A stretch of 64,000 bases of DNA, from positions 1,003 through 65,002 of the forward strand of contig JAJYFR010000001.1 of assembly GCA_021785355.1 (NCBI GenBank), read 5' to 3'. The stretch comes from a bacterium. GTDB taxonomy: Bacteria; Patescibacteriota; Dojkabacteria; JAKAPS01; JAJZLI01. Of the stretch, positions 1,008 through 27,932 are shown piece by piece. The stretch's first letter is position 1, and every line of letters begins with the position of its first letter. A program made the translations under genes and the position numbers. The notes beneath the pieces are model-generated. The model saw only the letters and a list, made by a program, of their open reading frames with translations, searched no databases and was not told the origin of the DNA.

Positions 1008-1036
1008 TTGACAAAAACTATAGGACGTGATAGCAT
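1008..1036 (+). promoter_or_regulatory. Sigma70-like promoter TTGACA-17-TAGCAT carrying a conserved extension TTGACAAAAACTATAGG
   Basis: TTGACA at 1008..1013, a 17-nt spacer, then TAGCAT at 1031..1036, about 37 nt upstream of the ATG at 1073. The same 17-mer recurs at 27904 and a close variant at 14215. Confidence 0.4.
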
Positions 1037-1072
1037 GTATTTTACATTATTTTAAATATACTTTTAATATTT

Positions 1073-2170
1073 ATGAATATAGAAGCAATAGATACATTTA
1101 TAGAAAGAGATGAAAAAAAAGAAGCTTCTTTGCAAAAAAAAGAAACTCCTATAGAAACTACATCTAGACATTTTAGAGAATTCAATAACAATGTACCTAA
1201 TTTTTTAGTAGATGGAAAAAATGAAGAAGAAGCTTCTCTTCCTGAATTAAAGTTTGACAAAGTCAGAGATGCAGAAACAGGGCAAGAATACAGAATTTTT
1301 ATTATCAATGAAGAATCAATTAAAGAGGGAAAAATCCCAAATGTTCTTACATTACAATATAACATAGGTGTAGATCATAAACCTGTACAATATTTAGCAC
1401 AAGTAATGGGACAAGAAGGAGATCCAATTATTTGCGTAGAAAGTCCTTCTGTTGGGGAATCTTCTGATATGACTAAAGATCAAAAAAAATTTTTAAAAGA
1501 GGGAGAAAAACCTTTTGAAAAAATATCTGAAAGTTTGTTGAGAGCTTTATATGGAAAAATCTATAATCCAAGAAATAAGGATAGAGAAATAAATTTTGTA
1601 GGATATTCACAAGGAGCAATTACAGCTTTAAGTAATGCGGAAGTAGCAGATAAATATGGTTTTAAAGTTAGAAAAGTTTTTCTTTTAGATATTCCTGGTA
1701 TAAAAGATTTTGGGAAAGGAGAAATAGGTTCAATTTTAGGCATAACCGGGGCTTTTAGTTCAGAAGCCTCAAGTTTAGGGTTTTATGAAAAAGATCCTAA
1801 TGATGAGAGGCAAAGAGAGGTTAGTGGGGTTGATAAAAAAAATAATCCACTAGTTACAAATGCTAGACTACTTAGAGATGTTGTAATAAAACCTATGACT
1901 AGAAGAGGTATGCAAACAGGGTATCCTGCTGCTATGGGAAGAAAAGTTGTTCCTGCGATTCTTGAATCTGCTTTGTCAAAACAGCCTGATATGAAAGTAA
2001 CTTTTGTGAGTGGATCTAAAAGTAAAATTACTCCAACTGAAGATACAAAAGAATTGCTTAAAGAATTTAATACAGATAGGATAAGAAGGATAGTTCTTCC
2101 AGGAGATACACATTCTGTAGGAGAGAGAGCTAGGAGACTAGGGGCATTATTCAAATTTACGAACAAATAA
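1073..2170 (+). CDS. Hypothetical alpha/beta-hydrolase-fold protein (esterase/lipase-like, GYSQG nucleophile elbow)
   Basis: 365 aa. The G-x-S-x-G motif (VGYSQGA) lies mid-protein, with downstream Asp and His candidates (LLDIPG, GDTHSVG). There is no signal peptide, and a promoter sits directly upstream. The antisense ORFs in the track are low-complexity and probably spurious. Confidence 0.6.
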   Translation: MNIEAIDTFIERDEKKEASLQKKETPIETTSRHFREFNNNVPNFLVDGKNEEEASLPELKFDKVRDAETGQEYRIFIINEESIKEGKIPNVLTLQYNIGVDHKPVQYLAQVMGQEGDPIICVESPSVGESSDMTKDQKKFLKEGEKPFEKISESLLRALYGKIYNPRNKDREINFVGYSQGAITALSNAEVADKYGFKVRKVFLLDIPGIKDFGKGEIGSILGITGAFSSEASSLGFYEKDPNDERQREVSGVDKKNNPLVTNARLLRDVVIKPMTRRGMQTGYPAAMGRKVVPAILESALSKQPDMKVTFVSGSKSKITPTEDTKELLKEFNTDRIRRIVLPGDTHSVGERARRLGALFKFTNK

Positions 2171-2182
2171 TATTGTTAATTT

Positions 2183-2262
2183 CTTATAAAGGAAATTTCT
2201 CGTACATATAAAGATAGATCTAATGATGTAATAAGCTCTTTTTCTTTTAATGTTTGATAAAT
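2183..2262. repeat. Degenerate duplicate of the valS 3' end (~89% identical to 3089..3167)
   Basis: Direct repeat cttataaaggaaatttctcgtacat...tctttttcttttaatgtttgata. A 1-nt indel breaks the valS C-terminal reading frame in this copy. Confidence 0.7.
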
Positions 2263-2361
2263 ACTCTCAGTGATAAATGGAATAAGTTGATATTTTTATT
2301 TAAAAGTCCTAGTTTATATAAAGCTATTTAAAGTTTTAAGAGTAGTAAGTTGTAATAATTT

Positions 2362-3081: not shown

Positions 3082-3088
3082 ATTTTTC

Positions 3089-3167
3089 CTTATAAAGGAA
3101 ATTTCTCGTACATTAAAGATGTATCTAGAGGAGTAATAAGATCTTTTTCTTTTAATGTTTGATATAT
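3089..3167. repeat. Second copy of the direct repeat; this copy is the authentic valS 3' end
   Basis: Matches 2183..2262. It encodes ...DLITPLDTSLMYEKFPL* on the minus strand. Confidence 0.7.
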
Positions 3168-5273
3168 ATTTTCTGTTATAAAAGGTATAAAAGGATGCAT
3201 TACTATTATATTTTGAAGTAGGGTATATATAAGTTCTGCTTTCATGTCTAGAGTCTGATATTCTTTAGTTTTTTCAATATATATGTCACAATAAGTGTGA
3301 TGATAAAAATTTTGAATATTGAAAGCCGCAATTCCTATATCAAATTTTTCTAATAATTTCTCTATGTTTCTTATATGCTTTTCTTGTTCTTTTTGAATAC
3401 TAAAATCTTTCATTTTTACTCTATACCCTAGATTTTCTCTAATATATTTTTTGTCTTCAGAAGAAAGATTTTCTGTCTGCAATAAGATATATCTTGCAGA
3501 ATTATATATTTTATTAATAAAATTTCTAAATCCTTTTACTTTTTCTTCATACAAACGAAGATCTTGATCTGCCGCATTTCCTGAAACTAATGATAACCTT
3601 AGTGCATCTGTTCCAAATTTATCTATAAACGTAGAAGGGTCCATTCCATTACCTTTCGATTTAGATTGTTTTTGACCATCTTTATCTAAAACTATTCCAT
3701 GCAGATAAACATCCCTAAAAGGAACTTTTTTTGTTTTATACAAACTTAACATCACCATCCTGGATACCCAAGAGAAAAGAATGTCTCTTCCTGTCTCCAT
3801 TACATCTTCAGGATAAAATTCTTTAAAATCTTTAGAATTTAATCCTCCTAGAACAGAATAAGGCCATTGAGAAGAAGAAAACCAAGTATCAAAAATATCT
3901 TCATCTTGAACTATTTTTGAGGATTTACAAAAGGGGCATTCTTTTGGTTCATCCAAAGATACAAATGTATTTCCACAACCTAAAATTTTTTCTGTAATAT
4001 CTCCATTTTCACTTATTATCGTTTCTTTGCCTCCACAGTAATAAACAGGAATTCTTTGCCCCCACCACAGTTGTCTTGATATACACCAGTCTTCTAAATT
4101 TTCTAACCATTGAACATAATTCTTTTCTTGTCGTTTAGGATGAATATGAATTTTTTCTTCTTCTAATGCTCTTATAGCAGAAGATGCCATATCTTTAGTT
4201 TTTAAAAACCATTGATAAGATATTAAAGGTTCTATTACTGTTTTTGATCTTTCACAAATCTGAATACTATGTTTGATTTTTTCTATCTTTTTTATTAAAT
4301 CTAAATCTTCTAATTCTTTTACAATAAGATCTCTTGCTTCTTTAACTTTCAATCCTTTATATTTTCCATATGTCATTTTTCCTCTCTGATCAATGACACT
4401 TATTATTGGTAGATTATGAATCTCTCCTAGTCTAAAATCTTCTTTTGAATGTCCTGGAGTAACTTTTAATACACCTGTTCCAAAATTTATATCAACAACC
4501 CTATCTCCTATAACAGGTAGGGTTTTTAACCCTTCTAGACTTTTAAATTCTATTACTTTTCCTATTAGGTGCTTATATCTTTTATCTCTTGGATTTACGG
4601 CAATTGCTGTATCTGCAATTATAGTCTCAGGTCTTGTTGTCGCAACTATTAAATCTCCGTATTTAATGTAATACAGAAAAGACTCTTCTTCTTCATATTC
4701 TGTATCAATGTCGGCTAGTGCTGTAAAACATTTAGGACACCAATTTATAATTCTTTTTCCCCTATATACTAAACCTTGATCAAACATTTCTTTGAAAGTT
4801 TCATTTACTATTCTGTTTAAATCCTCATCAAGTGTGAATTTTTCTCTAGAAAAATCTGCACTAAGGCCTATTCTTTTCTCTTGAGAACGGATATTATTAG
4901 AATTAATAATACAAAAATCAAAACACTGTTTATAAAACTCTTCTCTGCCTAAATCTCTTTTTTTTATACCTTTTTTTTCTAGAACTTTTTCAAAAACAAC
5001 TTCAGTTTGAATACTAGCATGATCTTTTCCAGGAACTAAAAGAACTTTATAACCTTTTAACCTTTTATATCTAGCAAGTATATCTTGATATGTATATCCT
5101 GATACATGACCTAAGTGTAGAGTTCCATTAGCATTAGGAGGAGGAAGAGGAATACTAAATGTTTTTTTCCTACTCTCTTTATATTCAGGAGTATATAAAT
5201 TGTTTCTTTCCCAGAAATTTAAAATTTCTATTTCAGTTTTATTAGGATTATATGATTTTTCTTCAATATTCAT
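3090..5273 (-). CDS. valS: Valyl-tRNA synthetase (class I aaRS), short form lacking the long C-terminal coiled-coil
   Basis: 727 aa. The PPPNANGTLHLGHV HIGH region and the KQSKSKGN (KMSKS-like) motif match ValRS signatures. Editing-domain-like and Zn-binding cysteines (CPKC...CGG...C) are present. Confidence 0.75.
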   Translation of the reverse strand: MNIEEKSYNPNKTEIEILNFWERNNLYTPEYKESRKKTFSIPLPPPNANGTLHLGHVSGYTYQDILARYKRLKGYKVLLVPGKDHASIQTEVVFEKVLEKKGIKKRDLGREEFYKQCFDFCIINSNNIRSQEKRIGLSADFSREKFTLDEDLNRIVNETFKEMFDQGLVYRGKRIINWCPKCFTALADIDTEYEEEESFLYYIKYGDLIVATTRPETIIADTAIAVNPRDKRYKHLIGKVIEFKSLEGLKTLPVIGDRVVDINFGTGVLKVTPGHSKEDFRLGEIHNLPIISVIDQRGKMTYGKYKGLKVKEARDLIVKELEDLDLIKKIEKIKHSIQICERSKTVIEPLISYQWFLKTKDMASSAIRALEEEKIHIHPKRQEKNYVQWLENLEDWCISRQLWWGQRIPVYYCGGKETIISENGDITEKILGCGNTFVSLDEPKECPFCKSSKIVQDEDIFDTWFSSSQWPYSVLGGLNSKDFKEFYPEDVMETGRDILFSWVSRMVMLSLYKTKKVPFRDVYLHGIVLDKDGQKQSKSKGNGMDPSTFIDKFGTDALRLSLVSGNAADQDLRLYEEKVKGFRNFINKIYNSARYILLQTENLSSEDKKYIRENLGYRVKMKDFSIQKEQEKHIRNIEKLLEKFDIGIAAFNIQNFYHHTYCDIYIEKTKEYQTLDMKAELIYTLLQNIIVMHPFIPFITENIYQTLKEKDLITPLDTSLMYEKFPL

Positions 5274-5407
5274 ATTTTAATAATTATATCATAGAAGACA
5301 AAAAAATAGCTTTAAAATGTATATGAATAATGCTCTAAACAGAGGGATCTTTACAGATTTTATAGATAAGGTATTATAGATATAATTTATATTAGATTTT
5401 ATATTTT

Positions 5408-6889
5408 ATGAGTATAAAAATAAAAAAAGCTTATTTTTTAGTATTTTTTCTCTCTTTGTTATTAATTTATATGCTTTCTTTAGGTAAGGTATTTGCAGAT
5501 GCACCAGATGCATCTCAAGTTCTTGCTGTTAGTAAAGATTTAAAAATAGTAGTTTTACCTACACAACTTGCAAGTGGAGCACCTTCTGGGTACTATATAA
5601 TATCTAAAACAGGAGCAGTACTGTCTTATGGAAATGCCCAGTTTTATGGAGATTTAACACAAATTCCTAATATTCCTAATAATCAGGTCGCAGATATGGT
5701 TTTAACTCCAAATGATTTAGGTTATTATATTCTTACCAAAGATGGGGGAGTATATACTTTTGGAAATGCTAAGTTTTTTGGTTCTGTTTTTAATATAACT
5801 AATGCTCCTATAAAAAATGCAGTTTCTATAAAATTAACTCCAAATGGTAATGGTTATTATGTTCTTACAGAAGATGGTGCTGTATATACATTTGGAACTG
5901 CTAAATTTAATGGATCTATGTATAATATACCAGCAGCACCTAATAAGGTTCCTGTCTCATTAAATATAACTCCTAACGGTCAAGGTTATTATATTCAAAC
6001 AGAAGATGGAGGTATATATACATTTGGGAATGCTCAATTTTTAGGATCAGTATATAATATTCCTCAGGCTCCTGTAAAAAATGCAATGGGAATGAAATTA
6101 ACTCCAAGAGGTCAAGGATATTATGTTCAAACTACAGATGGAGGTGTATATACTTTTGGAACAGCTCAATTTCAAGGATCAATATTTAATATAAAAGGAG
6201 CTCCTAATAAAACAGTCGCAGATATTGCTATAACACCAAATGGACAAGGTTATTATGCTCTAACTGCAGATGGAGGAGTATATACATTTGGGAATGCTCA
6301 GTTCGATGGTGCAGATTCAGCAGATGTAGCAGAAAATACTCTTACTGTGAAAAGTTATGTACAAGAACAAGTATCTCCAACTCAAGTTTTAGTAGAGGGA
6401 GAGATTCAGAATAATTCTAATACTACAATGACAGGAGTTACTCTTACTGCAACTGGTTCTTTTGGAACTCAGACAGTTACACCTATAATGTCAGCTCTAA
6501 ATCCTGATCAAAAAACTGCATTTATGTTTAGTTATCAAGGAACAGTATCTTCAGTAACATTTAGTGTAACAGGAACAACTTTTTCATCTAGTTATACAGA
6601 TCCTTTAAAGGTAAGTAATATTCAAGTAACTCAAGGTAGTGGAACTATAACAGTTACAGGAAATGTTACTAATAATTCTTCAGTTACTATAACTACTCCT
6701 AAGGTAGATATATTGTTTTTTGACTCAAATGAAAATATAGTAGCTCTACTAGATGCTACTAATAGTTTAGCTTCAAGTACCATTGCTCCAGGAGCTACAA
6801 CAACATTTAGTGCAACTCTTACGGGAGCTCCTGTATCTCAAGTATCTACAAACTTTGATGATGCAGTAAAAGTTTTTGCATCAAATTAG
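5408..6889 (+). CDS. Secreted repeat protein: signal peptide, about 6 copies of a ~44-aa GYYxLTxDGGVYTFGNAQFxGS repeat, and two Thr/Ser/Val-rich beta-sandwich-like C-terminal domains
   Basis: 493 aa. The signal peptide MSIKIKKAYFLVFFLSLLLIYMLSLGKVFA precedes tandem repeats of period 44 aa. The same repeat family occurs in 15870..17945 and 17945..20041. Confidence 0.8.
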   Translation: MSIKIKKAYFLVFFLSLLLIYMLSLGKVFADAPDASQVLAVSKDLKIVVLPTQLASGAPSGYYIISKTGAVLSYGNAQFYGDLTQIPNIPNNQVADMVLTPNDLGYYILTKDGGVYTFGNAKFFGSVFNITNAPIKNAVSIKLTPNGNGYYVLTEDGAVYTFGTAKFNGSMYNIPAAPNKVPVSLNITPNGQGYYIQTEDGGIYTFGNAQFLGSVYNIPQAPVKNAMGMKLTPRGQGYYVQTTDGGVYTFGTAQFQGSIFNIKGAPNKTVADIAITPNGQGYYALTADGGVYTFGNAQFDGADSADVAENTLTVKSYVQEQVSPTQVLVEGEIQNNSNTTMTGVTLTATGSFGTQTVTPIMSALNPDQKTAFMFSYQGTVSSVTFSVTGTTFSSSYTDPLKVSNIQVTQGSGTITVTGNVTNNSSVTITTPKVDILFFDSNENIVALLDATNSLASSTIAPGATTTFSATLTGAPVSQVSTNFDDAVKVFASN

Positions 6890-6905
6890 TATAAGTATAA
6901 AATAT

Positions 6906-6937
6906 GTAAAAAGGAGGGGAAACTCTCCTTTTTACTT
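6906..6937. terminator. Bidirectional rho-independent terminator between convergent genes
   Basis: gtaaaaaggag-ggga-aactctcctttttac forms an ~11-bp stem with a flanking A-run on one side and a T-run on the other. It sits between the stop of 5408..6889 (+) and the stop of 6932..7834 (-). Confidence 0.55.
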
Positions 6938-7834
6938 TATTACAAAAACATTACCCCCAGAAACTCCTATTAGACCCTTGTCTGTTTTTTTTATTAAAGA
7001 TATAGATTTTCCTTTTTTTAAATAACCCTTTTTTATAGAATTTTGAGATATAAATAACAATTCTCCTTTCTCTGTTCCTGCAAATAACATATTATCGATA
7101 ATGTCTAAAGAAGTAATAACAGAATCATTTTGAAATATTTCTTCTGTCTTCCATTCATCTGAAACATTTTCTAGTGAAAAAATTTTCTCACCTTTTGAAT
7201 AAATATAATTTTTTTCACTAATAGCAATTAAATTACGAGGAGAATTTATATCAGATAATTTCTCTACATTATAACTGTCATCTTCATGAAGATTCCATTT
7301 AAAAATACCTTCAAATCCTGAAGATACAAAAGATTTGCTGTTTAAGATAATAAATTTCTCAGTTTCAGGTACAATATCTGTTTTATTGTTTTTTAAAGTA
7401 AGATATTTTGTTTCCTTACCTATTCTTATTAAAGAAATATCCTCTTCATATGCACCTATTAATATAGAACTAAAATCCAGTGTTGCTGCTGAAAGTAGAA
7501 TAGGGGTCTTTATAAAAATTCTTTTTTTATAGCTTCTTTTATCTTCTCTTACTACAAGGATTCTTTCGTCTGAAAATTCAGATGCTTGTCTTACTAAAAA
7601 AGTTAATAATCTTTGATTATCATCTATACAAAATGTATCTACTATATTCTCTGAAGGATAAGAATTTTGAACAGGTTCAAGTCCTAATAAAGGGTCCCTT
7701 TTAAAAACATTTCCTTTTTTAGAATAATAGATCTCCCCCTTTTGAGATACCTGTATTGAGCTACTATCAACTTTACCTACAAGATACTCAGAGAGATCAA
7801 AATCTTCATCTGTGTGTTCTAATTCTAAATTCAT
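6932..7834 (-). CDS. Hypothetical protein
   Basis: 300-aa ORF in an AT-rich genome, which makes a chance ORF of this length unlikely. No recognisable motifs. Confidence 0.55.
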   Translation of the reverse strand: MNLELEHTDEDFDLSEYLVGKVDSSSIQVSQKGEIYYSKKGNVFKRDPLLGLEPVQNSYPSENIVDTFCIDDNQRLLTFLVRQASEFSDERILVVREDKRSYKKRIFIKTPILLSAATLDFSSILIGAYEEDISLIRIGKETKYLTLKNNKTDIVPETEKFIILNSKSFVSSGFEGIFKWNLHEDDSYNVEKLSDINSPRNLIAISEKNYIYSKGEKIFSLENVSDEWKTEEIFQNDSVITSLDIIDNMLFAGTEKGELLFISQNSIKKGYLKKGKSISLIKKTDKGLIGVSGGNVFVIK

Positions 7835-9489: not shown

Positions 9490-9915
9490 TTAGTGAAAAT
9501 AACTATTACTTATATTTAAAAATTCTGCGGGTTTTATAATTTGTATGTTTCTATATTGTGTTATTGACAATAAATCATCATCCCCACTTATTATATAGTC
9601 GACATTTCCAATAACTGCAGTTTCTATGACTTTGTTATCATCATGATCTCTACTTATTTTAACTGTAAGGCTACCAAGAGGAACCAAGGTTGCATCTTTC
9701 CTGATTGAGAGTTCAAGCAATTCCATGTTTGCTTGAAATAGCGGGAATTTTCTTGTTATTGTTCTGTGAAGCTCTGTAATAATTTCTTCACTAATTATTA
9801 TATTTATTTTTTTATCAATAAATTGTTGCAGTATAATTCTTGGAATTCCCCCAAAAACTAATCCAGATATCCATACATTAGTATCAATAACTACCTTAAT
9901 ATTGTGATTGGGCAT
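9490..9915 (-). CDS. PIN-domain toxin (PIN_3/TIGR00305-like)
   Basis: 141 aa. VVIDTNVWISGL at the N-terminus and DYIISGDDDLL near the C-terminus. It is paralogous to 53290..53751 and sits adjacent to an RHH partner. Confidence 0.7.
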   Translation of the reverse strand: MPNHNIKVVIDTNVWISGLVFGGIPRIILQQFIDKKINIIISEEIITELHRTITRKFPLFQANMELLELSIRKDATLVPLGSLTVKISRDHDDNKVIETAVIGNVDYIISGDDDLLSITQYRNIQIIKPAEFLNISNSYFH

Positions 9916-9920
9916 AATAT

Positions 9921-10151
9921 TTAATCTTCTTTAATTATTCTATAAACATCTTCTTCGTTATTAATCCCCATCTGCTTTCCAACTTTTCTACCTGCAGATA
10001 AAAGTTTCTTCCAACGTTTACGTTTATCTAAGTCCGCAATGGCAAGCCTTCTAAAATACTCACTTCTACTTCCTAAGTCTTGTTTAACTGCTTTATCAAT
10101 CTCTGTTAACAACTTTTTGTCAATTGCAATATTAACTGTTCGTGTGCTCAT
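9921..10151 (-). CDS. Ribbon-helix-helix (CopG-family) antitoxin
   Basis: 76 aa. TRTVNIAIDKKLLTEIDKAVK...RSEYFRRLAIADL is a typical RHH fold sequence. It lies 5 nt upstream of the PIN gene. Confidence 0.6.
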   Translation of the reverse strand: MSTRTVNIAIDKKLLTEIDKAVKQDLGSRSEYFRRLAIADLDKRKRWKKLLSAGRKVGKQMGINNEEDVYRIIKED

Positions 10152-12188: not shown

Positions 12189-12191
12189 TAT

Positions 12192-13358: not shown

Positions 13359-14176
13359 ATTTTTCTTAATATCTTTATATATTCAGGAATAAAATCCTTA
13401 TTTTTAAAATAATAGATAGGCATCTTTAGAATATCGTATATTTTTGCAATCTTGATCTCTTTTTTCATATTATGTTTTTTTAGTAATTTGTATTTATTTC
13501 TTAGAGAATATTTTAAATTTCTCAAATTACTCTCGCTACCTCTTAAGTGTACACACTCTGCTGAACTTATTAATAAATTATCATAACCTTCTTTTCTTAA
13601 TCTTAATCCTAAATCAACATCTTCATAATAAGATCTGAAAGTTGTGTCAAAAAAACCTACATCATCTATTGCTGATCTACTATAAATTGCAGCTGCAGCG
13701 CAACATGCAAATACTTTTTTTATACCAAAATATTTTTTCTTGATATCATTTGCGCTATATCCAAAATTAAGATATATCCCTTCACTATCAATTTTTGTTT
13801 TCTTAGAATCTTTGTAATATATTCCTTGTGCAGAACCTATCGTAACATCTTTACTCATCACTTCTACTATTTTTTGTATATATGATGAATTTAGAAATGC
13901 ATCATGATTTAAAGTGAGTATATATTCACCTTTCGATATTAAAAATCCCTGCAAATTAGCCTTTGCAAATCCTACATTTTTTTTATTTTCTATTACTTTA
14001 ATGTTTTTTATACCCTTAATATATTTTAGAGTATGATCTTTTGAATTATTGTCAACTACAATAATCTCTATATCATTATAAGTCTGTTTTAAAACTCTAA
14101 GAATTGTCTCTTGTATAAATTTTTCACTATTATATGTAACTATTATCACACTTACCATAAATGCATTATATATCAT
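13355..14176 (-). CDS. Glycosyltransferase family 2
   Basis: The VSVIIVTYN strand and a DNNSKDHT DxD-like motif. Its stop overlaps the Wzt stop by 4 nt (convergent genes). Confidence 0.8.
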   Translation of the reverse strand: MIYNAFMVSVIIVTYNSEKFIQETILRVLKQTYNDIEIIVVDNNSKDHTLKYIKGIKNIKVIENKKNVGFAKANLQGFLISKGEYILTLNHDAFLNSSYIQKIVEVMSKDVTIGSAQGIYYKDSKKTKIDSEGIYLNFGYSANDIKKKYFGIKKVFACCAAAAIYSRSAIDDVGFFDTTFRSYYEDVDLGLRLRKEGYDNLLISSAECVHLRGSESNLRNLKYSLRNKYKLLKKHNMKKEIKIAKIYDILKMPIYYFKNKDFIPEYIKILRKI

Positions 14177-14214: not shown

Positions 14215-14242
14215 TTGACAAATACTATAAGTCTGATATAAT
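14215..14242 (+). promoter_or_regulatory. Sigma70-like promoter TTGACA-16-TATAAT with extension TTGACAAATACTATAAG, a variant of the 1008 and 27904 motif
   Basis: TTGACA at 14215..14220 and TATAAT at 14237..14242, about 35 nt upstream of the ATG at 14277. Confidence 0.4.
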
Positions 14243-14276
14243 ACATCTTTATATAATTTTAATAAATCTGTATATT

Positions 14277-14798
14277 ATGGAAAATGAAAGAAGAATAAGT
14301 AAGAATGAAAAAAGAAGAAGTTTTTATATTTCTAAAATTTCAGATGATAAAGGAAATGTAACAGAAGTTTCTAATAGTTATGATACTAAAGGTAATCTTA
14401 TTCAGAGAACAGAAGAAACAAAATTTTCTGATCAAAGAGAAGGAAATCTAAAAAAAACTTATAATGTTTATGATTCTAAAGGTAATCTTATACATCAAAC
14501 AGAAAAAACAATATTTCCTGATCGTATGGAAATAATAGATTTTTTCTGTGGAAAGGATAATGTTTTGTTTAAAAGTGTTATTCCCAATATAGATAATGTT
14601 GATGATGTACATACTGAGTATAAAGAAGTTAATGGAAAACCAGTTTCTTTAGAAACGATTTTTAATGGTGAATATAAAAAAGAGGAATATAGAGAAGATG
14701 GATCTTTGATAAGAGAAACTATAAGAAATGTTGATTCATCAGGAAAAATTTCTCTATTTGTAGTTAAAGAATATAACGAAAAAGGGGAAATAATATAA
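14277..14798 (+). CDS. Hypothetical protein with short YD-like repeats (YDTKGNLIQRTE / YDSKGNLIHQTE)
   Basis: 173 aa. An internal duplicated ~28-aa segment is present. The upstream promoter supports the plus-strand ORF over the overlapping antisense ORF 14495..14803. Confidence 0.5.
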   Translation: MENERRISKNEKRRSFYISKISDDKGNVTEVSNSYDTKGNLIQRTEETKFSDQREGNLKKTYNVYDSKGNLIHQTEKTIFPDRMEIIDFFCGKDNVLFKSVIPNIDNVDDVHTEYKEVNGKPVSLETIFNGEYKKEEYREDGSLIRETIRNVDSSGKISLFVVKEYNEKGEII

Positions 14799-15302: not shown

Positions 15303-15308
15303 AATATT

Positions 15309-15869: not shown

Positions 15870-17945
15870 TTACTGAGTAATTGCTATTGCTCCACTCGGA
15901 TCAGGATATAAGGTTCCTTCAGAAAGTATCCCTCCAAATGTATATAAAGCACCATCTTTCTCTAAAATCATATATCCAGAATTTGTTATTAATAGACTCG
16001 TAGGATTATTTTGAGGAACAGCTGATGAAGGAATATTATACATAGATCCATAAAACTGAGCATCCCCAAATGTATATATGGCTCCATCCTTTGTCAGTAT
16101 ATAGTATCCTTCTCCTTGAGAAGAAAGTCTTAGTGCAACGGCTGTCTTTACTGGGGCATTTGGAATGTTAAAAACAGATCCATAAAACTGAGCATCTCCA
16201 AATGTATATACTGCTCCATTAGATGTAAGTATATAATAACCTGATTGATCTTGGGTTAATACCAAAGAGAGTGGAGTTCTTACAGGTACTGCAGAAGAAG
16301 GAATATTATACATAGATCCATAAAACTGCGCATTTCCAAATGTATATACCGCTCCATCTTCTGTTAGTATATAGTAACCTAGATCATTCTTTGTAGGTAC
16401 TATAGCTACAGATTGTTGCACAGGAGGATTAGGAATATTATACATAGATCCATAAAACTGCGCATTTCCAAATGTATATACCGCTCCGTTAGATGTAAGT
16501 ATATAATATCCCGTATTAGTTCTTGCTATATCTGTGGGAGTAGAATTTACAGGTAAATTTCCCCAATACTGATCTTGTCCAAAAGTAGAAACTGTTCCTT
16601 GTGATGAGAGTACAGTATAAGGGGTACTATTAACAGGATAATTTAACATATTATTTATATTTAAAAGACCAAAACCATAAAGATTATAGTTTCCCAGAGA
16701 AGTAGAACACATTTTTAATATATTTTCCATAAAAGCAGAATTTTGTACTCCATTTACAGATTCATATAAGGCGATTGCTGCTACTACCTGAGGTGTTGCA
16801 AAAGATGTTCCCACTAAATATTCATTAGAAAAACTACTAAATGAACTAACTGTCCCTGTATCATATCCTGTGAGAGTTTGTTGATATACTAAAGGTGTGT
16901 TATATCCTACAGGAGCAACTACTGTTTGACAATTTAGATCTGTACTACATCCATAATTAGAATATGAGGTAAGCGTATTAGAAGAATTACTAGCTCCAAC
17001 TGCAATTACATTTGGATATCCTGCAGGGTAATCTAGAGAATTACTTCCTTCATTTCCTGAAGCTGCAACAACAATAATTCCATCATTTATTGCTTGTTCT
17101 ATTAAAGTCTCCTCACTCTGAGATGGAGTAGTGGAGGCTATGGAAAGATTTATTATATTTGCATGATTATTAATTGCCCATTGAAGACCTAAAAGTTCTG
17201 CACCTAGAGGAATTCCATTACTATTTCCTATCTTTACAGGCATGATTGTTGCATTAAAAGCAATTCCTGCTGTAGCATAATTCAAAGAACCCGAAGCATC
17301 ATTATTTGTACTTGATGCTATTATTCCTGCTATATATGTCCCATGTCCTACATTATCATATGGAGCATATTCATTTTGAAGCTGATTGTTATATACAGCT
17401 AATGCATTATATGGATCTTTTATGTTAAGATTTGATAAAGAAGGTGCTTGTGCATAAAAAGTATTATCTAATGGATTGGTATAATTTTGATAAGCTATTC
17501 CAGAGTCTAATACAGCTATAGTAATATTAGATGACCCTCCTAAAGAACTACTAAACCCATTATTATCTACTACAGGAGCATGTGTTAAAAATAGATTTTT
17601 CTGTTGTGTTATATCTATATTATTAGGAAGTTGAGAAAAACTTTTAATGTAATTGGGAGTAACATTATAAAGATTTGTATTTGAAAGTAAGCTTATTAAG
17701 AAATTTTCATAACTCATATTGTTAGGTTTTTCTACAATTTCAGTATTAGAGTTAATTTTTCTTACACTATATCCTAAATTTAAATTTTGAGAATTTATAT
17801 TTACTATTGCATTATTGAGTGTATATCTTTTATTTTGAGTAAGAATTGTAAATTTTTGATATACAGAAATATCCTGAGCATATATCTTAGAAAACAGGAT
17901 AAATGAGAATGATAAGCTTATTGAGATAAATAAAAATTTTTTCAT
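15870..17945 (-). CDS. Secreted subtilisin-like serine protease (peptidase S8) with ~6 C-terminal GYYILTxxGAVYTFGNAQFYGS repeats
   Basis: 691 aa with a signal peptide. The S8 triad motifs are IAVLDSGI (Asp), HGTYIAGIIAS (His) and GTSFATPQVVAAIAL (Ser). The C-terminal ~250 aa consists of 44-aa tandem repeats. Confidence 0.85.
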   Translation of the reverse strand: MKKFLFISISLSFSFILFSKIYAQDISVYQKFTILTQNKRYTLNNAIVNINSQNLNLGYSVRKINSNTEIVEKPNNMSYENFLISLLSNTNLYNVTPNYIKSFSQLPNNIDITQQKNLFLTHAPVVDNNGFSSSLGGSSNITIAVLDSGIAYQNYTNPLDNTFYAQAPSLSNLNIKDPYNALAVYNNQLQNEYAPYDNVGHGTYIAGIIASSTNNDASGSLNYATAGIAFNATIMPVKIGNSNGIPLGAELLGLQWAINNHANIINLSIASTTPSQSEETLIEQAINDGIIVVAASGNEGSNSLDYPAGYPNVIAVGASNSSNTLTSYSNYGCSTDLNCQTVVAPVGYNTPLVYQQTLTGYDTGTVSSFSSFSNEYLVGTSFATPQVVAAIALYESVNGVQNSAFMENILKMCSTSLGNYNLYGFGLLNINNMLNYPVNSTPYTVLSSQGTVSTFGQDQYWGNLPVNSTPTDIARTNTGYYILTSNGAVYTFGNAQFYGSMYNIPNPPVQQSVAIVPTKNDLGYYILTEDGAVYTFGNAQFYGSMYNIPSSAVPVRTPLSLVLTQDQSGYYILTSNGAVYTFGDAQFYGSVFNIPNAPVKTAVALRLSSQGEGYYILTKDGAIYTFGDAQFYGSMYNIPSSAVPQNNPTSLLITNSGYMILEKDGALYTFGGILSEGTLYPDPSGAIAITQ
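16300..16487. repeat. Intragenic near-identical DNA repeats: a 56-nt perfect repeat at 16300..16355 and 16432..16487 with a 132-bp period
   Basis: ggaatattatacatagatccataaaactgcgcatttccaaatgtatataccgctcc occurs twice exactly. Related copies near 16050 and 16170 encode the YTFGNAQFYGS blades. Confidence 0.8.
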
Positions 17946-20041
17946 TATGGAATAAGATTAATTCCTACTGTTTTTTGAAATATACCAATAGCTGTTCCAT
18001 CATATACAGCATTTCCAAAAGTATATATCCCTCCATCTTGGGTCAACAGATAATATCCTCCATTGTTTGATGTTACTACAAATGATTGAGGTGTAGTATT
18101 AGGTGCTCCCTGAATATTGAACATAGATCCATGAAATTGTGCATCTCCAAAAGTATATACTCCTCCATCTTGAGTGGTTATATAATAACCTGCGCCATCT
18201 GGTGTGAGTGCAAAATCAACTGCATTTTTATTGGGAGCATTAGGTATATTAAAGACAGATCCATGAAATTGTGCATCTCCAAAAGTATATACTGCGCCAT
18301 TAGATGTCATTATATAATAACCACCTCCATCAGGAGTCAGTGCGAAAGCAAGAGGCGTTCTGTCAGGAAGTGCAGATGCTGGGATATTAAATAGTGATCC
18401 GTGGAATTGTGCATCTCCAAAAGTATATACTCCTCCATCCGTAGTTAAAACATAATATCCTTTTCCATCAGGTGTAGTTACAATTGAGACTGGAGTTTTT
18501 ATTGGAGCATTAGGTATATTAAAAACAGATCCATAGAATTGAGCAGATCCAAATGTATATATTCCTCCATCAGTAGTTAGGATATAGTAGCCTGTATCAT
18601 TTGGTAGAGTTGCTAAACCTTGCGCATTTGAATCAGGAGCTCCATTTACATACGACATATCTCCATAATAATTTGCATTTCCAAATGCAAGAACTTTTCC
18701 TGCAGAAGAAAGTAGGGTATATGCACTGTTTATATTTGAAAAAATAGAATTTGTTGTAAAATATGTATTTATAGCTGATGTAAGGTTAGTTGACGGTTGT
18801 TCATAGCCTAATGTCCATAAACTAACTCCTCTAAGATTAGATTGTAAAACTTGAGAGTAAACTAAACCTAGTGATGTAGCATTAGAATAGTATCCTTGTC
18901 TTAACTGATCTGAGGAGGCACAGTTAGGTGGAGTATTATTAGAAGGATAGCAATATCCATACCAAGGAGTTGAGCTTTGTGAATCCCAATGCTTAGTATT
19001 TTGATTTTTATATTGATCATTTGTCTGACCATAAGGTTCATTTATTCCACTTCCTGATACAGTAGATGCATTTTGATTATTAGATGTTGTTTGATAATCA
19101 TTTCCATAATATGGAACACCTAAAATTATTTTATTAGGATTAATAGCTGATGCATAATCAAGAATTGTACGTCTAACATCATACCATAAAGGACCTGCTC
19201 CGTTATTATATCCTGTAAAAGGATTTACAGGCTCAGCTACACTGGATGAAGGAGTGTAATAATCATAAGCCATTACATTTAGAGCATCTGTAACGTTTGC
19301 AAGTTGAGGAACATTAAATAATGATCCTGTCCAACGTACTGCTGAAGCAAAAACATCTACACTAACAAAAGATCCTGGAATTTGAGAATGTGTTTGTTGA
19401 GTTAGATTAGAAATAAAAGTTGTAAAATTATTTATTGTTGTAGTGCTAGGTGTTCCTTGTGAAGGTTGATATTCAAAGTCTATATTTACTCCATCACAAT
19501 TAAATTTCTTTACTATAGATATAATATTATTAATAAAATTTTGAGCATTTGTTGTATTATTTACAACACTTTCAATGTCTGTGATATTAAATATTTTTGC
19601 AGAAATTATAACCCGTACATTTTTTGAATGGGCAGTGTTTACCATATCTGTAAATTGAGAAGAATTTAATCCAGCCCAACCACTTCCTCCTCCTGCGTTT
19701 GTTCCAAAATTACCATTACCATCTGATGTTATTCCAAAATAGTCTATTGTAGTAAGATTAGAATAAGGATATGAAGTATATGCACCAGAAGAAAGATCCC
19801 AATATGGAGCAAATCCCATAACCTCCTTTTGTAAACCTTGTGGGCCTAAACTCGCAAATTTCTTTAAAGGTTGAGGTTTACTAACAGCAGGTGTAAACGA
19901 ATATGTTTTATTTGAATAGAAAGAGTTTAGATAACTGTTTCCTTGATATGCTGAAGATGGAGGTGTACTCGCAAAAACTCTACCTGTTAGAGAAAGAGAG
20001 AATACTGTGAAAAATATAGAAAAAAATATTTTTTTAAACAT
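17945..20041 (-). CDS. Secreted glycoside hydrolase family 18 (chitinase/endo-beta-N-acetylglucosaminidase-like) with ~6 C-terminal repeats of the same family
   Basis: 698 aa with the signal peptide MFKKIFFSIFFTVFSLSLTGRVFA. GH18 motifs are GFAPYWD, the catalytic DGVNIDFEY (DxxDxDxE) and MAYDYY. The C-terminal repeats are GYYVLTTDGGVYTFGDAQFHGS. Confidence 0.8.
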   Translation of the reverse strand: MFKKIFFSIFFTVFSLSLTGRVFASTPPSSAYQGNSYLNSFYSNKTYSFTPAVSKPQPLKKFASLGPQGLQKEVMGFAPYWDLSSGAYTSYPYSNLTTIDYFGITSDGNGNFGTNAGGGSGWAGLNSSQFTDMVNTAHSKNVRVIISAKIFNITDIESVVNNTTNAQNFINNIISIVKKFNCDGVNIDFEYQPSQGTPSTTTINNFTTFISNLTQQTHSQIPGSFVSVDVFASAVRWTGSLFNVPQLANVTDALNVMAYDYYTPSSSVAEPVNPFTGYNNGAGPLWYDVRRTILDYASAINPNKIILGVPYYGNDYQTTSNNQNASTVSGSGINEPYGQTNDQYKNQNTKHWDSQSSTPWYGYCYPSNNTPPNCASSDQLRQGYYSNATSLGLVYSQVLQSNLRGVSLWTLGYEQPSTNLTSAINTYFTTNSIFSNINSAYTLLSSAGKVLAFGNANYYGDMSYVNGAPDSNAQGLATLPNDTGYYILTTDGGIYTFGSAQFYGSVFNIPNAPIKTPVSIVTTPDGKGYYVLTTDGGVYTFGDAQFHGSLFNIPASALPDRTPLAFALTPDGGGYYIMTSNGAVYTFGDAQFHGSVFNIPNAPNKNAVDFALTPDGAGYYITTQDGGVYTFGDAQFHGSMFNIQGAPNTTPQSFVVTSNNGGYYLLTQDGGIYTFGNAVYDGTAIGIFQKTVGINLIP

Positions 20042-25387: not shown

Positions 25388-26771
25388 ATCAATAATTTTT
25401 ATAATTTTCACTATATTTATATCTTTGTTAATTTGGTGGATATCTTTACCTGTATTTCAATCTTTTGATGAACCCGCTCATTTTGCTCAGATACAACATA
25501 TAGCAGAAACTAACCAATATGATATGAATAATACAATAAGTAATGAGCAATTTTTATTAGAAAATTTTTTAAAATTTAATATATTTAATGCTAATGTGAA
25601 TTCTCAATATCATTTTATAAGTAAAAACTATAATATAAGAAAATATATATTTGATAAAAAATCAAATACTAAGATTAATAGAAATACATTTACACATGTA
25701 GCTATAGTTGAGAATTACCCCCCACTTTATTATTATATATCAGCAGTTGTATATAAAATTACTAAACAAAAGAGTATATTTTTTAGTATAGAAGCTATTC
25801 GTTTTATATCTATATTCTTTTTTCTAATTACATTGATATTCTCCTATAAAATTGCTTTATTAATATTTCCAGAAGATATCTGGATACAATATTGTACAGT
25901 AATTTTTATAGGGTTTTTGCCTATGTTATCGCAATTGTCAGTATCTATTAATCCAGATAATTTATTAATAACATTGTTTACGCTGTTTACTTATTATTCA
26001 CTTAAACTATTAAGATCTAGCGGTTTTTCTCAAAAAACAAATATAGTATTAGTAATAATATTATTATTAGGTTTCATGACAAAACAAAGTGCTTATATAC
26101 TATGTATTCCTTATTTGTTTTTAATAGGGTATAAATTAAAAAATAAAAAACTGTCATTAAGATATAAACAAATATTAATTTTAGGTTTTTTTTTCTTAAT
26201 ATTAATATTTTTCTTTTTAAAAGGATTTACATTAATATTTGATTATATAAGTGGTACATTTAATAGTTGGAAATATTTTTCTCCACTAGACTATATTTAC
26301 AAATATTCTACAAATTATTTTTTTAATGGATATGTATTTCAATCTTTTTGGGGAGCTTTTGGTTGGGGATTTTTTAAATTTCCTCAACAATATTATGATA
26401 TTTTATACTTATTTTTAAGTACATCAATTATTGGGATAATAATATATTACTATAATTTAACTTATATAACTAAAAAAAATAGGAAACTTTTGTATACAAT
26501 TAATTATTTAATAATATTATCATTAACATATTCTTTATTTCTTGTATATTTAGATTTTATATCTATAAAAAATACTGGGACATTTTTTATACAAGGGCAT
26601 TATTTTTTTGAAATAATAACTGCGAATACAATTCTGTTTCTTTTCGGAATAGGAGAATTTTTTAAAAGGTTTAAATTAAAAAATACAATCTATTTCATAA
26701 TAATAATAGGAATAGTTTTGTTAAATACAACAGGATTATTTCAAATATTAATAAATAAATTCTATTTATAG
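25356..26771 (+). CDS. Polytopic membrane glycosyltransferase of the GT-C fold (ArnT/PMT-like) or related glycan polymerase
   Basis: 471 aa with more than 10 TM helices. An SFDEPAH acidic motif in the first predicted external loop is typical of GT-C enzymes. The start may be the Met at 25365 instead; the given start overlaps the upstream gene by 32 nt. Confidence 0.55.
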   Translation: MFYMKLKKYDKSIIFIIFTIFISLLIWWISLPVFQSFDEPAHFAQIQHIAETNQYDMNNTISNEQFLLENFLKFNIFNANVNSQYHFISKNYNIRKYIFDKKSNTKINRNTFTHVAIVENYPPLYYYISAVVYKITKQKSIFFSIEAIRFISIFFFLITLIFSYKIALLIFPEDIWIQYCTVIFIGFLPMLSQLSVSINPDNLLITLFTLFTYYSLKLLRSSGFSQKTNIVLVIILLLGFMTKQSAYILCIPYLFLIGYKLKNKKLSLRYKQILILGFFFLILIFFFLKGFTLIFDYISGTFNSWKYFSPLDYIYKYSTNYFFNGYVFQSFWGAFGWGFFKFPQQYYDILYLFLSTSIIGIIIYYYNLTYITKKNRKLLYTINYLIILSLTYSLFLVYLDFISIKNTGTFFIQGHYFFEIITANTILFLFGIGEFFKRFKLKNTIYFIIIIGIVLLNTTGLFQILINKFYL

Positions 26772-26778
26772 GTGGATT

Positions 26779-27594
26779 ATGGAAAGATTTAATATAAAAA
26801 AAATTAGAATATTAGTTACCTTTATAATATCTATAGTTATTTTATATATATTTTTTATGGCTTCCTTTTTTTATATTGTAAATCAATATGTCGTTCAGAA
26901 TAAGTTCCACTATCAAACCCCAGAAAATTTATTAAGAATAAATAATAAAAAGATAATTACAGAAACTTTTTATATAAATAATTATAATTTAAGTAGCATA
27001 AACTTATTTCTTATAAATAATAGTACCTCTAATTTTAACCGTAATATTACAAATACCATTAAGGTGGTTGTAAAATCACACAATAAAGATTTTTGTTCTC
27101 AAATAATTCCTATAATATATATAAAGACTAATTCATTGAATTCTATTAATTGTGGTTTGAAAAATAAACAATTATATACAATAGAGATAATGGGAGAAAA
27201 TATAATAAAAACAGAAAATATTGATATTGCTGTAGTAAAATCTAATAGTAATATAATTTATAATAGAAAAAAGATAAAAGGTGGAATATTAATGGGCTTT
27301 ACTTATAATTTAGGTGCATTTAATCTAAAAAACATAAAAAATTCATGGTATGTTTTGAAAAGATACATGAGTGAATATAAGCCAGGTTTTATGACAAATT
27401 TTTATATATATATTTTTTTTGGAATATATTTTATTTTTATACCTTTATTAATAATATTTATAATATGTAAATATTATTCAGATATTAAAATACAAAAGCA
27501 GGATGTATTAAAGGTTATAATTCTTATTACTATATTAATAATATTATATTTATTCTTACATACACATTCTTATAATCAAGCCACATTTGCTTGA
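26779..27594 (+). CDS. Hypothetical membrane protein (N- and C-terminal TM helices)
   Basis: 271 aa, Asn/Ile-rich, co-oriented with the glycosylation genes upstream. Confidence 0.45.
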   Translation: MERFNIKKIRILVTFIISIVILYIFFMASFFYIVNQYVVQNKFHYQTPENLLRINNKKIITETFYINNYNLSSINLFLINNSTSNFNRNITNTIKVVVKSHNKDFCSQIIPIIYIKTNSLNSINCGLKNKQLYTIEIMGENIIKTENIDIAVVKSNSNIIYNRKKIKGGILMGFTYNLGAFNLKNIKNSWYVLKRYMSEYKPGFMTNFYIYIFFGIYFIFIPLLIIFIICKYYSDIKIQKQDVLKVIILITILIILYLFLHTHSYNQATFA

Positions 27595-27903
27595 AATATT
27601 ATGGGATTAAATTTGGGCATTCTAAATATTTTTCTAAATTTGTTTAGGTATAAGTAATATAATTCTTAATATGAAAATGGTAATATTAATCTTAACTTTT
27701 CTAAATTTAGAGGAATAGATAAAGAGGGGAAAATATAATCTAAAGAATTAAAAAAAATAAGTAATCTATTATTTGGAAGAATATCTAGAATTTTATATTT
27801 TAAATATTTTTATATTATTTCAATTTATGCGAAAATACTAGAGGATATATTTGTCATAAAAAAGCTTTAAATAGAGTAAATACTTAACATTCAGTATGTG
27901 TTA

Positions 27904-27932
27904 TTGACAAAAACTATAGGTTTCTATACAAT
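27904..27932 (+). promoter_or_regulatory. Sigma70-like promoter TTGACA-17-TACAAT with the same TTGACAAAAACTATAGG extension as at 1008
   Basis: TTGACA at 27904..27909 and TACAAT at 27927..27932, about 30 nt upstream of the ATG at 27963. Confidence 0.4.

Follow-up and report, generated by a model that had tools for sequence, protein, structure and literature searches.

A near-invariant 17-mer at gene starts very probably marks a small co-regulated gene set in a patescibacterial genome

Introduction

Most lineage-specific genes of the Patescibacteria (CPR) are unannotated, and to our knowledge transcriptional regulation in these bacteria is almost uncharted. The presence of one long, nearly identical sequence ahead of unrelated genes on a contig of an uncultured, low-GC member of this group raises the question of whether it is a shared switch and what kind of factor would read it. 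A sequence-only reading of the 64-kb stretch analysed here (the window) had noticed this sequence at three sites and proposed a regulon of three members. An invariant cis-element of this kind would be a computational handle for grouping orphan genes into one programme. A full-text search of a library of papers gave no match to any of four 15-base motif strings or to the accession strings of related MAGs, and a search for work on CPR regulons or promoters gave nothing relevant beyond a general review.

Results

A 17-mer within predicted sigma-70-type promoters

The element is non-random and occurs at gene starts only. The window contains five copies of the motif TTGACAAAWWCTATARG (1008+, 14215+, 27904+, 47793-, and 48419-), against 0 matches in 100 dinucleotide-preserving shuffles. 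All five copies are intergenic, with 39-65 nt from motif start to ATG. The three sites reported earlier are where they were said to be (TTGACAAAAACTATAGG at 1008-1024 and 27904-27920, TTGACAAATACTATAAG at 14215-14231), as are their -10 boxes (TAGCAT, TATAAT, and TACAAT, after spacers of 17, 16, and 17 nt). The count of three members was too low: allowing W at both motif positions 9 and 10 brings out two further exact sites, both TTGACAAATTCTATAAG (47777-47793 and 48403-48419, minus strand), and two variants, at 45629-45602(-) and 34408-34435(+), have a decayed -35 and an intact CTATAAG-N5-TGnTATAAT/TATTAT. The mismatch spectrum is bimodal, with exact sites followed by noise at 2-3 mismatches, and the approximately 12 kb of contig sequence added to the window (about 76 kb read overall) contains no new motif sites.

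The geometry is that of a sigma-70-type promoter, with a -35 near TTGACA and a TAnnnT -10 box at 17 ± 1 nt. All five sites in the window have an exact TTGACA, as have 18 of the 19 sites of the clade. A TAnnnT box follows each 17-mer after 5-6 nt (spacer 16-17 nt); it was found at 5/5 window sites without being required, which at a fixed distance has a chance of about 1e-5, as estimated from base composition. CTATARG alone is not enriched in the window (29 found vs 29.8 expected); CTATARG-N5/6-TAnnnT is (13 vs 2.8). The canonical TTGACA/TAnnnT pair sets these promoters apart from the ECF, sigma-54, and sigma-28 types, whose -35/-10 (or -24/-12) elements are non-canonical.

In the profile of the 19 sites, information runs unbroken from -35 to -17 and reappears only at the -10. 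Past motif position 19 there is no conservation until this separate -10, where positions 23, 24, and 28 are T, A, and T in 17-18 of the 19 sites. The spacer element, AAwwCTATARGnY, spans about -29 to -17 and varies little or not at all between aligned orthologues, and the near-invariance of the motif amounts to about 30 bits, -35 included; CTATAAG is used rather than CTATAGG in 12/19 sites. The element is asymmetric: the 19-site profile shows no second half-site or symmetric partner, the only palindromic stretch is the 6-bp CTATAG, and there is none of the symmetry, dyad or direct-repeat, that dimeric regulators usually call for.

Other TTGACA-N17-TAnnnT promoters in the window, upstream of 6932-7834, 9921-10151, 456-680, and groES, lack the element. 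It is also absent from the aminoacyl-tRNA synthetase gene in the window and from other genes in the scanned related loci, including the dnaK operon, rpmH, and L25. With other TTGACA promoters and housekeeping genes devoid of the spacer element, a general strong-promoter consensus of the organism is out. The selected positions extend outside the hexamers contacted by sigma, the targets are unlinked and non-homologous, and non-targets lack the site.

Table 1. Promoter elements and downstream genes in the window.
Feature	Position	Strand	Description
Promoter 1	1008..1036	+	TTGACAAAAACTATAGG - acgTGa - TAGCAT; 17-nt spacer; TGn extended -10
Family A gene	1073..2170	+	365-aa alpha/beta hydrolase; GYSQG nucleophile elbow
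Promoter 2	14215..14242	+	TTGACAAATACTATAAG - tcTGa - TATAAT
YD/RHS-like repeat protein	14277..14798	+	173 aa, hydrophilic; two 30-aa repeats
Promoter 3	27904..27932	+	TTGACAAAAACTATAGG - tttcta - TACAAT
Orphan protein	27963..28502	+	179 aa
Degenerate variant	34408..34435	+	TGGAAAAATGCTATAAG - gaTGa - TATTAT; small unknown ORFs downstream (34502-34690 and onward)
Degenerate variant	45602..45629	-	-35 decayed to ATGAAA; ATTACTATAAG - ttTGa - TATAAT kept
ORF behind the 45602..45629 variant	45594-45196	-	ATG 7 nt past -10
Putative two-gene operon	46414..47736	-	Downstream of promoter 4
Second operon gene	46414-47100	-	228 aa, unknown; starts 4 nt past family B end
Family B, first operon gene	47104-47736	-	210 aa; N-terminal hydrophobic anchor and beta-rich domain
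Promoter 4	47765..47793	-	TTGACAAATTCTATAAG - cctTGt - TATAAT; hexamer matches 12/12
194-aa protein	47796..48380	-	Function unknown; hydrophobic segment, residues 19-37
Promoter 5	48391..48419	-	TTGACAAATTCTATAAG - ctttag - TATTCT

The downstream genes are unrelated

The earlier descriptions of the genes at 1073-2170, 14277-14798, and 27963-28502 hold, as does the claim that they are unrelated: BLASTP shows no similarity among them, nor is there any among the five to seven targets in the window. Family A begins with an ATG 65 nt past the start of its motif. Its AlphaFold model (mean pLDDT 61) matches generic esterases and dehalogenases in a Foldseek search of the PDB, and this predicted structure suggests only a generic alpha/beta hydrolase. 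The repeats of the protein at 14277..14798, which make up the direct-repeat family D7, match RHS_repeat weakly (E 0.059, below the family cut-off). A search of 5.8 billion proteins gave the 179-aa orphan a single homologue, a variant 99% identical to it. Promoter 4 precedes what is probably a two-gene operon; the structure model of its first product, family B, is weak, with fold matches that are not meaningful (TM <0.3). Sequence searches against the PDB were empty. The mRNA of 47796..48380 would be nearly leaderless, because the ATG is only 10 nt past the -10.

The targets had been portrayed as signal-peptide-less hydrophilic proteins. This fails as a rule for all of them, since two products, those of 47104-47736 and 47796-48380, are hydrophobic over an N-terminal segment. 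The family B gene is syntenic with an operon encoding a VirD4/TraG-like type IV secretion ATPase, and this is the only hint that bears on the label of candidate effectors or stress proteins given to the set. None of the regulon proteins has a PHROG or PADLOC match, and the window contains no known RNA element at Rfam gathering thresholds.

The 17-mer is unchanged at orthologous genes

The exact 17-mer precedes 6/6 family B orthologues, at a protein identity of 20-40%; three family B orthologues retrieved by protein similarity alone all have it (3/3). For family A, the exact motif is present in 3/5 orthologues, with a 17-mer identical to that of promoter 1 in L203 and L332, and the other two keep the CTATARG core. 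The -35 is TTGGCA in L331 and is lost in L328, which has kept CTATAAG. At the sites devoid of a -35 (L328, 45629-, and 34408+), the distance from CTATAAG to a TGn-extended -10 is still 5-6 nt. In the upstream alignments of both families, whose proteins are only 20-60% identical, conservation is confined to the 17-mer and the TA of the -10. These alignments indicate strong purifying selection on the motif across species, independent of its flanks.

We scanned 185,579 species genomes, a species-representative collection from which the window's own genome is absent, and found 1-3 strict motif copies in each related genome. Apart from nine matches from the window's clade, at least 15 of the 91 have titles that name Patescibacteria or CPR lineages, and the same 17-mer is over-represented, as single copies, in other Patescibacteria. 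The element could therefore predate the window's clade. Single copies of the 17-mer with a -10 in unrelated bacteria and viral contigs are at about chance level. A protein-based metagenome scan found nothing, and a pattern-based one gave no clade members among the matches listed. The genomic surroundings are variable: the neighbourhood of family A differs between genomes, and the counterpart in L147 of the window region 45174-48612 is about 190 bp long.

Discussion

A putative operator in the promoter spacer

Because related species keep the 17-mer unchanged ahead of the same genes, it very probably acts as a common switch for a small set of co-regulated genes. The idea of a shared cis-element with a small regulon is borne out by the sigma-70 geometry, the unrelated genes, the conservation at orthologues, and the few copies per genome. 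How the switch works is a matter on which we place about as much trust as doubt in the following reading: the core promoter is of the housekeeping-sigma type, and the spacer is a putative operator for a DNA-binding protein, most likely a repressor. A housekeeping-type sigma would read the -35 TTGACA and the -10 TAnnnT across the 17-nt spacer, and a candidate sequence-specific DNA-binding protein would bind AAwwCTATARGnY. This protein may repress by occlusion, because RNA polymerase, at a promoter otherwise close to consensus, would cover the element. A few unlinked genes specific to the lineage would thereby be switched together, namely the alpha/beta hydrolase, the membrane-anchored beta-rich protein by the VirD4-like ATPase operon, the YD-repeat protein, and the orphans. 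We infer, then, that a protein other than sigma reads the element and represses, and that the member genes are co-expressed; the regulon would lie in a low-GC clade.

No DNA-binding gene accompanies the sites with any regularity, and no regulator emerged. A YerC/TrpR-like protein encoded behind the same 17-mer in L154 was considered and rejected, having no homologue in the available clade sequence. An asymmetric element with no second half-site is unusual for dimeric bacterial repressors, which counts against the repressor reading. Its near-invariance also exceeds that of typical transcription factor sites, and direct reading by the transcription machinery fits this as well.

Alternative readings

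The chief rival to a repressor is an alternative sigma or a sigma-bound factor. A second sigma-70-like (group 2) sigma, or a cofactor tethered to sigma, would read TTGACAAAwwCTATARG as a whole, making the set a sigma-specific regulon and the element no repressor operator, which we hold to be possible but on the unlikely side. Group-2 sigmas share hexamer specificity with the primary sigma, and the hexamers here are canonical, as expected of them; the information is contiguous with the -35, asymmetric, and at a fixed distance from the -10, and its near-invariance is closer to that of polymerase-recognition sequences than to that of typical operators. Yet CTATAAG persists at sites where the -35 is lost and is therefore not simply an extended -35. 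Region 4 of sigma contacts roughly the -35 hexamer only, no sigma is known to read -25 to -19 sequence-specifically, and no sigma gene was seen in the available sequence. The sequence-only reading had left the choice between a regulator binding site and an alternative-sigma specificity; the former fits better, given the canonical hexamers, the other TTGACA promoters that lack the element, and its survival after loss of the -35, and the latter fits less well.

A broader form of the same idea, which we consider doubtful, is that in this clade of Patescibacteria a 19-bp extended -35/spacer element is read directly by the transcription machinery, either by a specialised sigma or by an adaptor bound to sigma, and that this switches on host-interaction genes. 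If so, the host-interaction gene set would be encoded partly beside a type IV secretion coupling ATPase, and a polymerase that itself reads the element would represent a new kind of promoter determinant.

The conservation might instead reflect common descent of a constitutive strong promoter cassette, propagated or captured before new accessory genes. The member genes are indeed orphan or lineage-specific and lie in variable islands, and family A changes neighbours from genome to genome. We nevertheless think this improbable. The 17-mer is all that the copies have in common; in the upstream flank, the linker of 5-6 nt, the -10 hexamer, and the leader they differ from one another, so that no copied block is visible. 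Moreover, the 17-mer is invariant between orthologues at 20-40% protein identity with randomised flanks, which calls for ongoing selection on the spacer bases, and a generic strong promoter requires none.

It is very improbable that the sites serve a phage-type single-subunit RNA polymerase. Promoters of that type are typically highly invariant, and there is a resemblance in sequence only: the core ACTATAGG equals positions -6 to +2 of the T7 class III promoter, and TGACA...CTATAG resembles the SP6 promoter. Against this stand TAnnnT at a fixed distance in 5/5 window sites, a TGn extended -10 that compensates where the -35 is lost, the preference for CTATAAG over CTATAGG, and a conservation that stops at position 19 in place of a conserved block of about 23 bp over the start site. 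The annotated window genes include no phage-type polymerase, PHROG match, or prophage context. A phage or defence-island context was likewise discarded, PHROG and PADLOC having given no matches for the regulon proteins and the viral-contig scan nothing but single copies, about as many as chance would give.

That the similarity is due to chance, or to a dispersed repeat with no tie to gene starts, is hardly credible: an AT-rich genome is full of TATA-like strings, but the shuffles did not give one exact match, orthologous positions are conserved, every copy is at a gene start, the 20 largest direct-repeat families listed (of at least 60 found) include no longer repeat that takes in the sites, and the flanks are unrelated. 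An invertible promoter was also rejected, the inverted repeats around the sites being inconsistent AT-rich chance ones.

Under the preferred reading of a promoter with a spacer operator, the motif singles out member genes whose products may take part in host interaction or be linked to type IV secretion. The element could also serve as bait to fish for the regulator and as a possible promoter/operator part for genetic tools in Patescibacteria.

Comparison with known systems

The element shares the string (A)CTATAG(G) and a very low degeneracy with T7/SP6 promoters, but its geometry, conserved -10, extended -10 compensation, and chromosomal context indicate a bacterial multisubunit polymerase. 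Phage T4 middle promoters likewise pair a conserved box near -30 to -20 with a good -10; their box, the MotA box at -30, is recognised by a factor acting together with the host sigma (sigma appropriation). The MotA box, however, has another sequence and replaces the -35, and the window motif has no phage context. As in MerR-family promoters, the protein-binding sequence, putative in our case, lies between -35 and -10. MerR spacers are of 19-20 bp with a dyad operator, whereas those of the window are of an optimal 17 (16) bp with an asymmetric element. A MerR-type spacer operator was rejected on both grounds.

The operators of CtsR, HrcA/CIRCE, and LexA in small-genome Gram-positives are similarly conserved over the -35/-10 of housekeeping-sigma promoters, in few copies per genome and across genera. 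The window motif differs in having no repeat or dyad, its targets are not chaperones, proteases, or repair genes, and groES in the window lacks it. Its sequence is unrelated to the GGTCAAA repeats, the CIRCE inverted repeat, and the SOS box, and presumably fits none of the consensus sequences of CtsR, CIRCE, LexA, NrdR, Fur, Rex, WalR, PhoP, IHF, and sigma-S.

PmrA-dependent promoters drive the Dot/Icm type IV effector genes of Legionella and Coxiella. Their PmrA site, a tandem direct repeat, takes the place of the -35 and serves activation, whereas the window motif has a canonical -35 and a single asymmetric unit within the spacer, and secretion of the products is only putative. In both cases, a short conserved element immediately upstream of the -10 precedes many unrelated, fast-evolving, lineage-specific genes in a host-dependent bacterium with a type IV secretion system, and defines the regulon computationally.

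Promoter sites in the window

The sequence-only reading had described an extended promoter motif, TTGACAAAWACTATARG, at three sites. A pattern search of the window recovered all three as exact matches on the forward strand at the positions claimed (promoters 1-3 in the table), and 100 dinucleotide-preserving shuffles contained no match to this pattern. The count was nevertheless incomplete, with five exact and two degenerate sites found: allowing W at both variable positions added two exact copies on the reverse strand (TTGACAAATTCTATAAG; promoters 4 and 5). Only 0.5 sites would be expected even with two mismatches permitted; the five exact ones are all intergenic. Each is followed, 5-6 nt 3' of the motif, by a TAnnnT hexamer at the canonical 16-17 nt from TTGACA, and the ATG of the downstream ORF lies 39-65 nt from the motif start. 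The core CTATARG alone is not enriched in the window (29 found, 29.8 expected); CTATARG-N5/6-TAnnnT is (13 found, 2.8 expected), and this search returned two more promoters with a decayed -35, an intact core, and an adjoining TGn-extended -10. A mismatch scan was bimodal, with exact sites at gene starts and then noise at two to three mismatches, apart from these two variants.

One three-mismatch look-alike, at 2254, sits in a 77-nt intergenic segment (2209-2285) that is 82% identical to 3114-3190, the 3' end of the adjoining aminoacyl-tRNA synthetase gene (3090-5273, reverse strand), and is probably the remnant of a partial duplication.

Motif promoters and their products in the window, and conserved leaders behind the same promoter in loci from other genomes
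Feature	Position	Strand	Details
Promoter 1	1008	+	exact; -10 TAGCAT
Promoter 2	14215	+	exact; -10 TATAAT
Promoter 3	27904	+	exact; -10 TACAAT
Promoter 4	47793-47777	-	exact; -10 TATAAT
Promoter 5	48419-48403	-	exact; -10 TATTCT
Degenerate variant	45629-45602	-	ATGAAAATTACTATAAG-tttga-TATAAT
Degenerate variant	34408-34435	+	TGGAAAAATGCTATAAG-gatga-TATTAT
Product 1	1073-2170	+	365 aa; family A
Product 2	14277-14798	+	173 aa; two YD-like 30-aa repeats
Product 3	27963-28502	+	179 aa; orphan
Product 4	47736-47104	-	210 aa; family B
Product 5	48380-47796	-	194 aa
Conserved non-coding leader, locus L124	2100-2282	-	
Conserved non-coding leader, locus L150	2110-2293	-	
Conserved non-coding leader, locus L202	3700-4067	-	
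Conserved non-coding leader, locus L205	5170-5535	-	

Conservation across species

A search for the 17-mer followed by a -10 in 185,579 genomes, each representing one species, gave 91 stretches. Of these, nine belong to relatives of the window with low G+C (24-29%): three sites in TL1-1.bin64, two in YP4.bin81, and one each in LSA3.bin44, FK3.bin15, clean1586, and FK_Sedi_A_Bin.248. All nine have the same layout, in which the -10 is followed by a short AT-rich leader and an ATG. The genes downstream of motif sites fall into orthologous groups: family A (product 1 and its counterpart in locus L203, 58% identity), family B (product 4 and those in L147 and L148, 28-40% identity), and family C (L157 and L167). 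The motif target of one relative is a DUF5663 protein.

More orthologues were retrieved by protein search without use of the motif (P0014-P0016 for family A; P0019, P0020, and P0022 for family B), and their contigs were then read. All three new family B genes carry exact TTGACAAAAACTATAAG plus TAnnnT, so that the exact motif precedes six of six orthologues at protein identities of 20-40%. In family A, the motif is exact in the window, L203, and L332, has a single -35 change (TTGGCA) in L331, and has lost the -35 in L328, where ACTATAAG-atTTGt-TATACT is retained. Upstream alignments of both families leave only the 17-mer and the TA of the -10 invariant. A profile of 19 non-redundant sites holds contiguous information over TTGACAAAwwCTATARGnY plus the T/A/T of the -10, with none upstream or downstream of the motif and -10 and no second half-site. 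L332 is the fetched locus closest to the window by tblastx aligned length, a total inflated by repeat proteins; the genes it has in common with L175 are ~77% identical in amino acids (tblastx).

Among the 91 genome matches, at least 15 bear titles of Patescibacteria or CPR lineages other than the focal clade, a share that looks over-represented given what we take to be the composition of the collection. Other MAGs that look like Patescibacteria have conserved non-coding leaders behind this 17-mer promoter (see the table), one of which has a hairpin-like GATCCTGAGG...CTTTAGGATTTTTTTATGG and lies ahead of a secreted-protein gene. In Saccharibacteria, a conserved leader block including GAACAGTTCGTTAACAA stands behind this promoter.

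The spacer element (AAwwCTATARGnY) is absent from other good TTGACA-N17-TAnnnT promoters of the window, namely those upstream of 6932-7834, 9921-10151, 456-680, and groES. Across the related loci scanned, which include the hrcA-grpE-dnaK operon, rpmH, and the gene for ribosomal protein L25, it occurs at family A genes only. Relative genomes hold one to three strict copies each, and contigs of the same organism gave no further site in 10 kb more to the left and 2 kb more to the right. The motif genes are a small, specific set, and the motif is not the organism's general promoter.

Target genes and their surroundings

None of the five products gave a significant Pfam or NCBIfam match or showed BLASTP similarity to another of them, and the target proteins matched nothing in phage or defence libraries. 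The family A product belongs to the alpha/beta hydrolases: it has a GYSQG elbow, and the D and H are conserved. Its model has a mean pLDDT of 61, and the Foldseek matches are generic esterases and dehalogenases. In family B, a basic N-terminus and a hydrophobic segment accompany a beta-rich domain; the model gave no informative fold match. The family B gene adjoins an operon of Peptidase_S51 and a VirD4/TraG-like ATPase in the window, L147, and L338; in L148, close to the locus end, it is two genes away from the Peptidase_S51 gene. This placement is a hint of some connection with type IV secretion.

The 45629 variant and promoters 4 and 5 lie in a five-gene block, 45174-48612, that forms a variable island flanked by a GT2 gene and the Peptidase_S51/VirD4-like operon. 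The block amounts to only ~190 bp in TL1-1.bin64 (L147 2371-2558), where the family B gene, promoter included, lies on the opposite side of the glycosyltransferase gene from that in the window. Elsewhere in this genome (L198 3098-7458, reverse strand), the motif is followed on the same strand by the DUF5663 gene, a 1024-aa gene, and an orthologue of the window glycosyltransferase 13355-14176, which, unlike in that arrangement, is divergent from promoter 2. The type IV secretion-related genes of the window (48519-52388) encode Peptidase_S51, a VirD4/TraG/HerA-like ATPase (49247-51211), and a Replic_Relax winged-helix protein (51669-52388), a speculative candidate for the DNA-binding partner of the motif. 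Two T4SS_pilin genes lie just past the right window end (L335 3842-5052).

The ATG lies either 39-40 nt or 57-65 nt from the motif start, and the shorter offset implies nearly leaderless mRNAs; at about a third of the motif promoters (e.g., promoter 5), the ATG comes only ~10 nt after the -10. Most window genes lack a Shine-Dalgarno sequence and have short, AT-rich leaders (e.g., 1040-1075, 14245-14280, and 27935-27965). AGGAG is present at a few genes (9921-10151 and the family B genes in L338 and L339).

The window (G+C ~26%; standard genetic code, TGA stops included) is chromosomal, with groES/groEL, an aminoacyl-tRNA synthetase, MurJ, and a UvrD/PD-(D/E)XK helicase-nuclease, together with many glycosyltransferases and a Wzm/Wzt ABC exporter. 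Its GroEL is the sole member of its 90% identity cluster. Judging in part by gene content, with type IV pilus and T4SS genes and DUF5663, the lineage is probably a clade of low-GC Patescibacteria (CPR). Three pairs of a small protein and a PIN-domain protein (53-680, 9490-10151, and 53290-54107) resemble VapBC toxin-antitoxin modules. Large proteins of 132-nt (44-aa) tandem repeats with faint RCC1-type matches are encoded at 5408-6889, 15870-17945 (fused to a subtilisin-type peptidase S8 domain), and 17945-20041 (fused to a GH18 chitinase domain), and similar ones occur in L332. Within the gene-poor, unannotated stretch 34.4-38.6 kb, two 103-nt segments (34489-34591 and 37791-37893) are 78% identical over the starts of two small ORFs (both ...cctgatgYtattATGCTTATAG), which are therefore a paralogous pair. 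The 234-aa protein of 34841-35545 matches the PADLOC model of Csx27, a membrane protein associated with type VI-B CRISPR (E 6.6e-8); neither a CRISPR array nor cas genes turned up in the vicinity, and the match may reflect generic membrane-protein similarity.

How the spacer element may be read

What the alignments show is a core promoter of canonical housekeeping type. In its spacer, bases -29 to -17 are strongly selected at several unlinked genes, in species where the DNA around them has otherwise been randomised. We infer that some factor reads these bases. Between a regulator's site and alternative-sigma specificity, both proposed earlier, phylogenetic footprinting backs a shared regulatory site of a small regulon, and an alternative sigma is the less likely. 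We give roughly even chances to a separate DNA-binding protein, not sigma, that would bind the spacer element. This is favoured because sigma region 4 contacts essentially the -35 hexamer only, and because the CTATAAG core is kept at a fixed distance from the extended -10 at promoters that have lost their -35. Because the site falls within the footprint of polymerase on a promoter expected to be strong unaided, repression by occlusion, in which the bound protein would block polymerase, seems more likely than activation.

The asymmetry and extreme invariance of the element fit at least as well the main rival, which we consider rather unlikely: that the transcription machinery itself reads the element, by way of a sigma-bound adaptor or another, sigma-70-like factor. 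Propagation of the promoter with gene cassettes is improbable: it accounts for the association with variable, orphan genes, but not for why 17 bases alone are shared and kept, and not the linker, -10, or leader. A dispersed repeat is ruled out by the mutually unrelated flanks of the five copies, the absence of motif sites from the 20 largest direct-repeat families of the window, and the lack of consistent inverted repeats flanking the sites; chance and a T7/SP6-type promoter (with which the motif shares the ACTATAGG string) are effectively excluded.

Elsewhere, the 17-mer occurs as isolated single copies only, with or without the -10 requirement, among the viral contigs, unrelated bacteria, and metagenome matches listed (viral contigs: 111 singletons of the 17-mer alone). 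By a rough estimate, this is about the chance rate among real TTGACA-N17-TAnnnT promoters.

Comparison with known systems

Literature searches gave no match for the 15-base motif strings and nothing relevant on CPR regulons. The motif adds a new case to a known class, that of promoter-embedded cis-regulatory elements. Its interest is moderate: regulation in this lineage is, to our knowledge, almost unstudied, and the target genes are otherwise unannotatable. Spacer length and dyad symmetry set MerR-type spacer operators apart from it. CtsR, HrcA, and LexA operators resemble it in position and low copy number but not in sequence, symmetry, or targets. In its logic, the motif comes closest to the PmrA box, a short element by the -10 that unites unrelated, fast-evolving Dot/Icm effector genes in Legionella and Coxiella, although that box is a tandem repeat replacing the -35, is activating, and has a known regulator.
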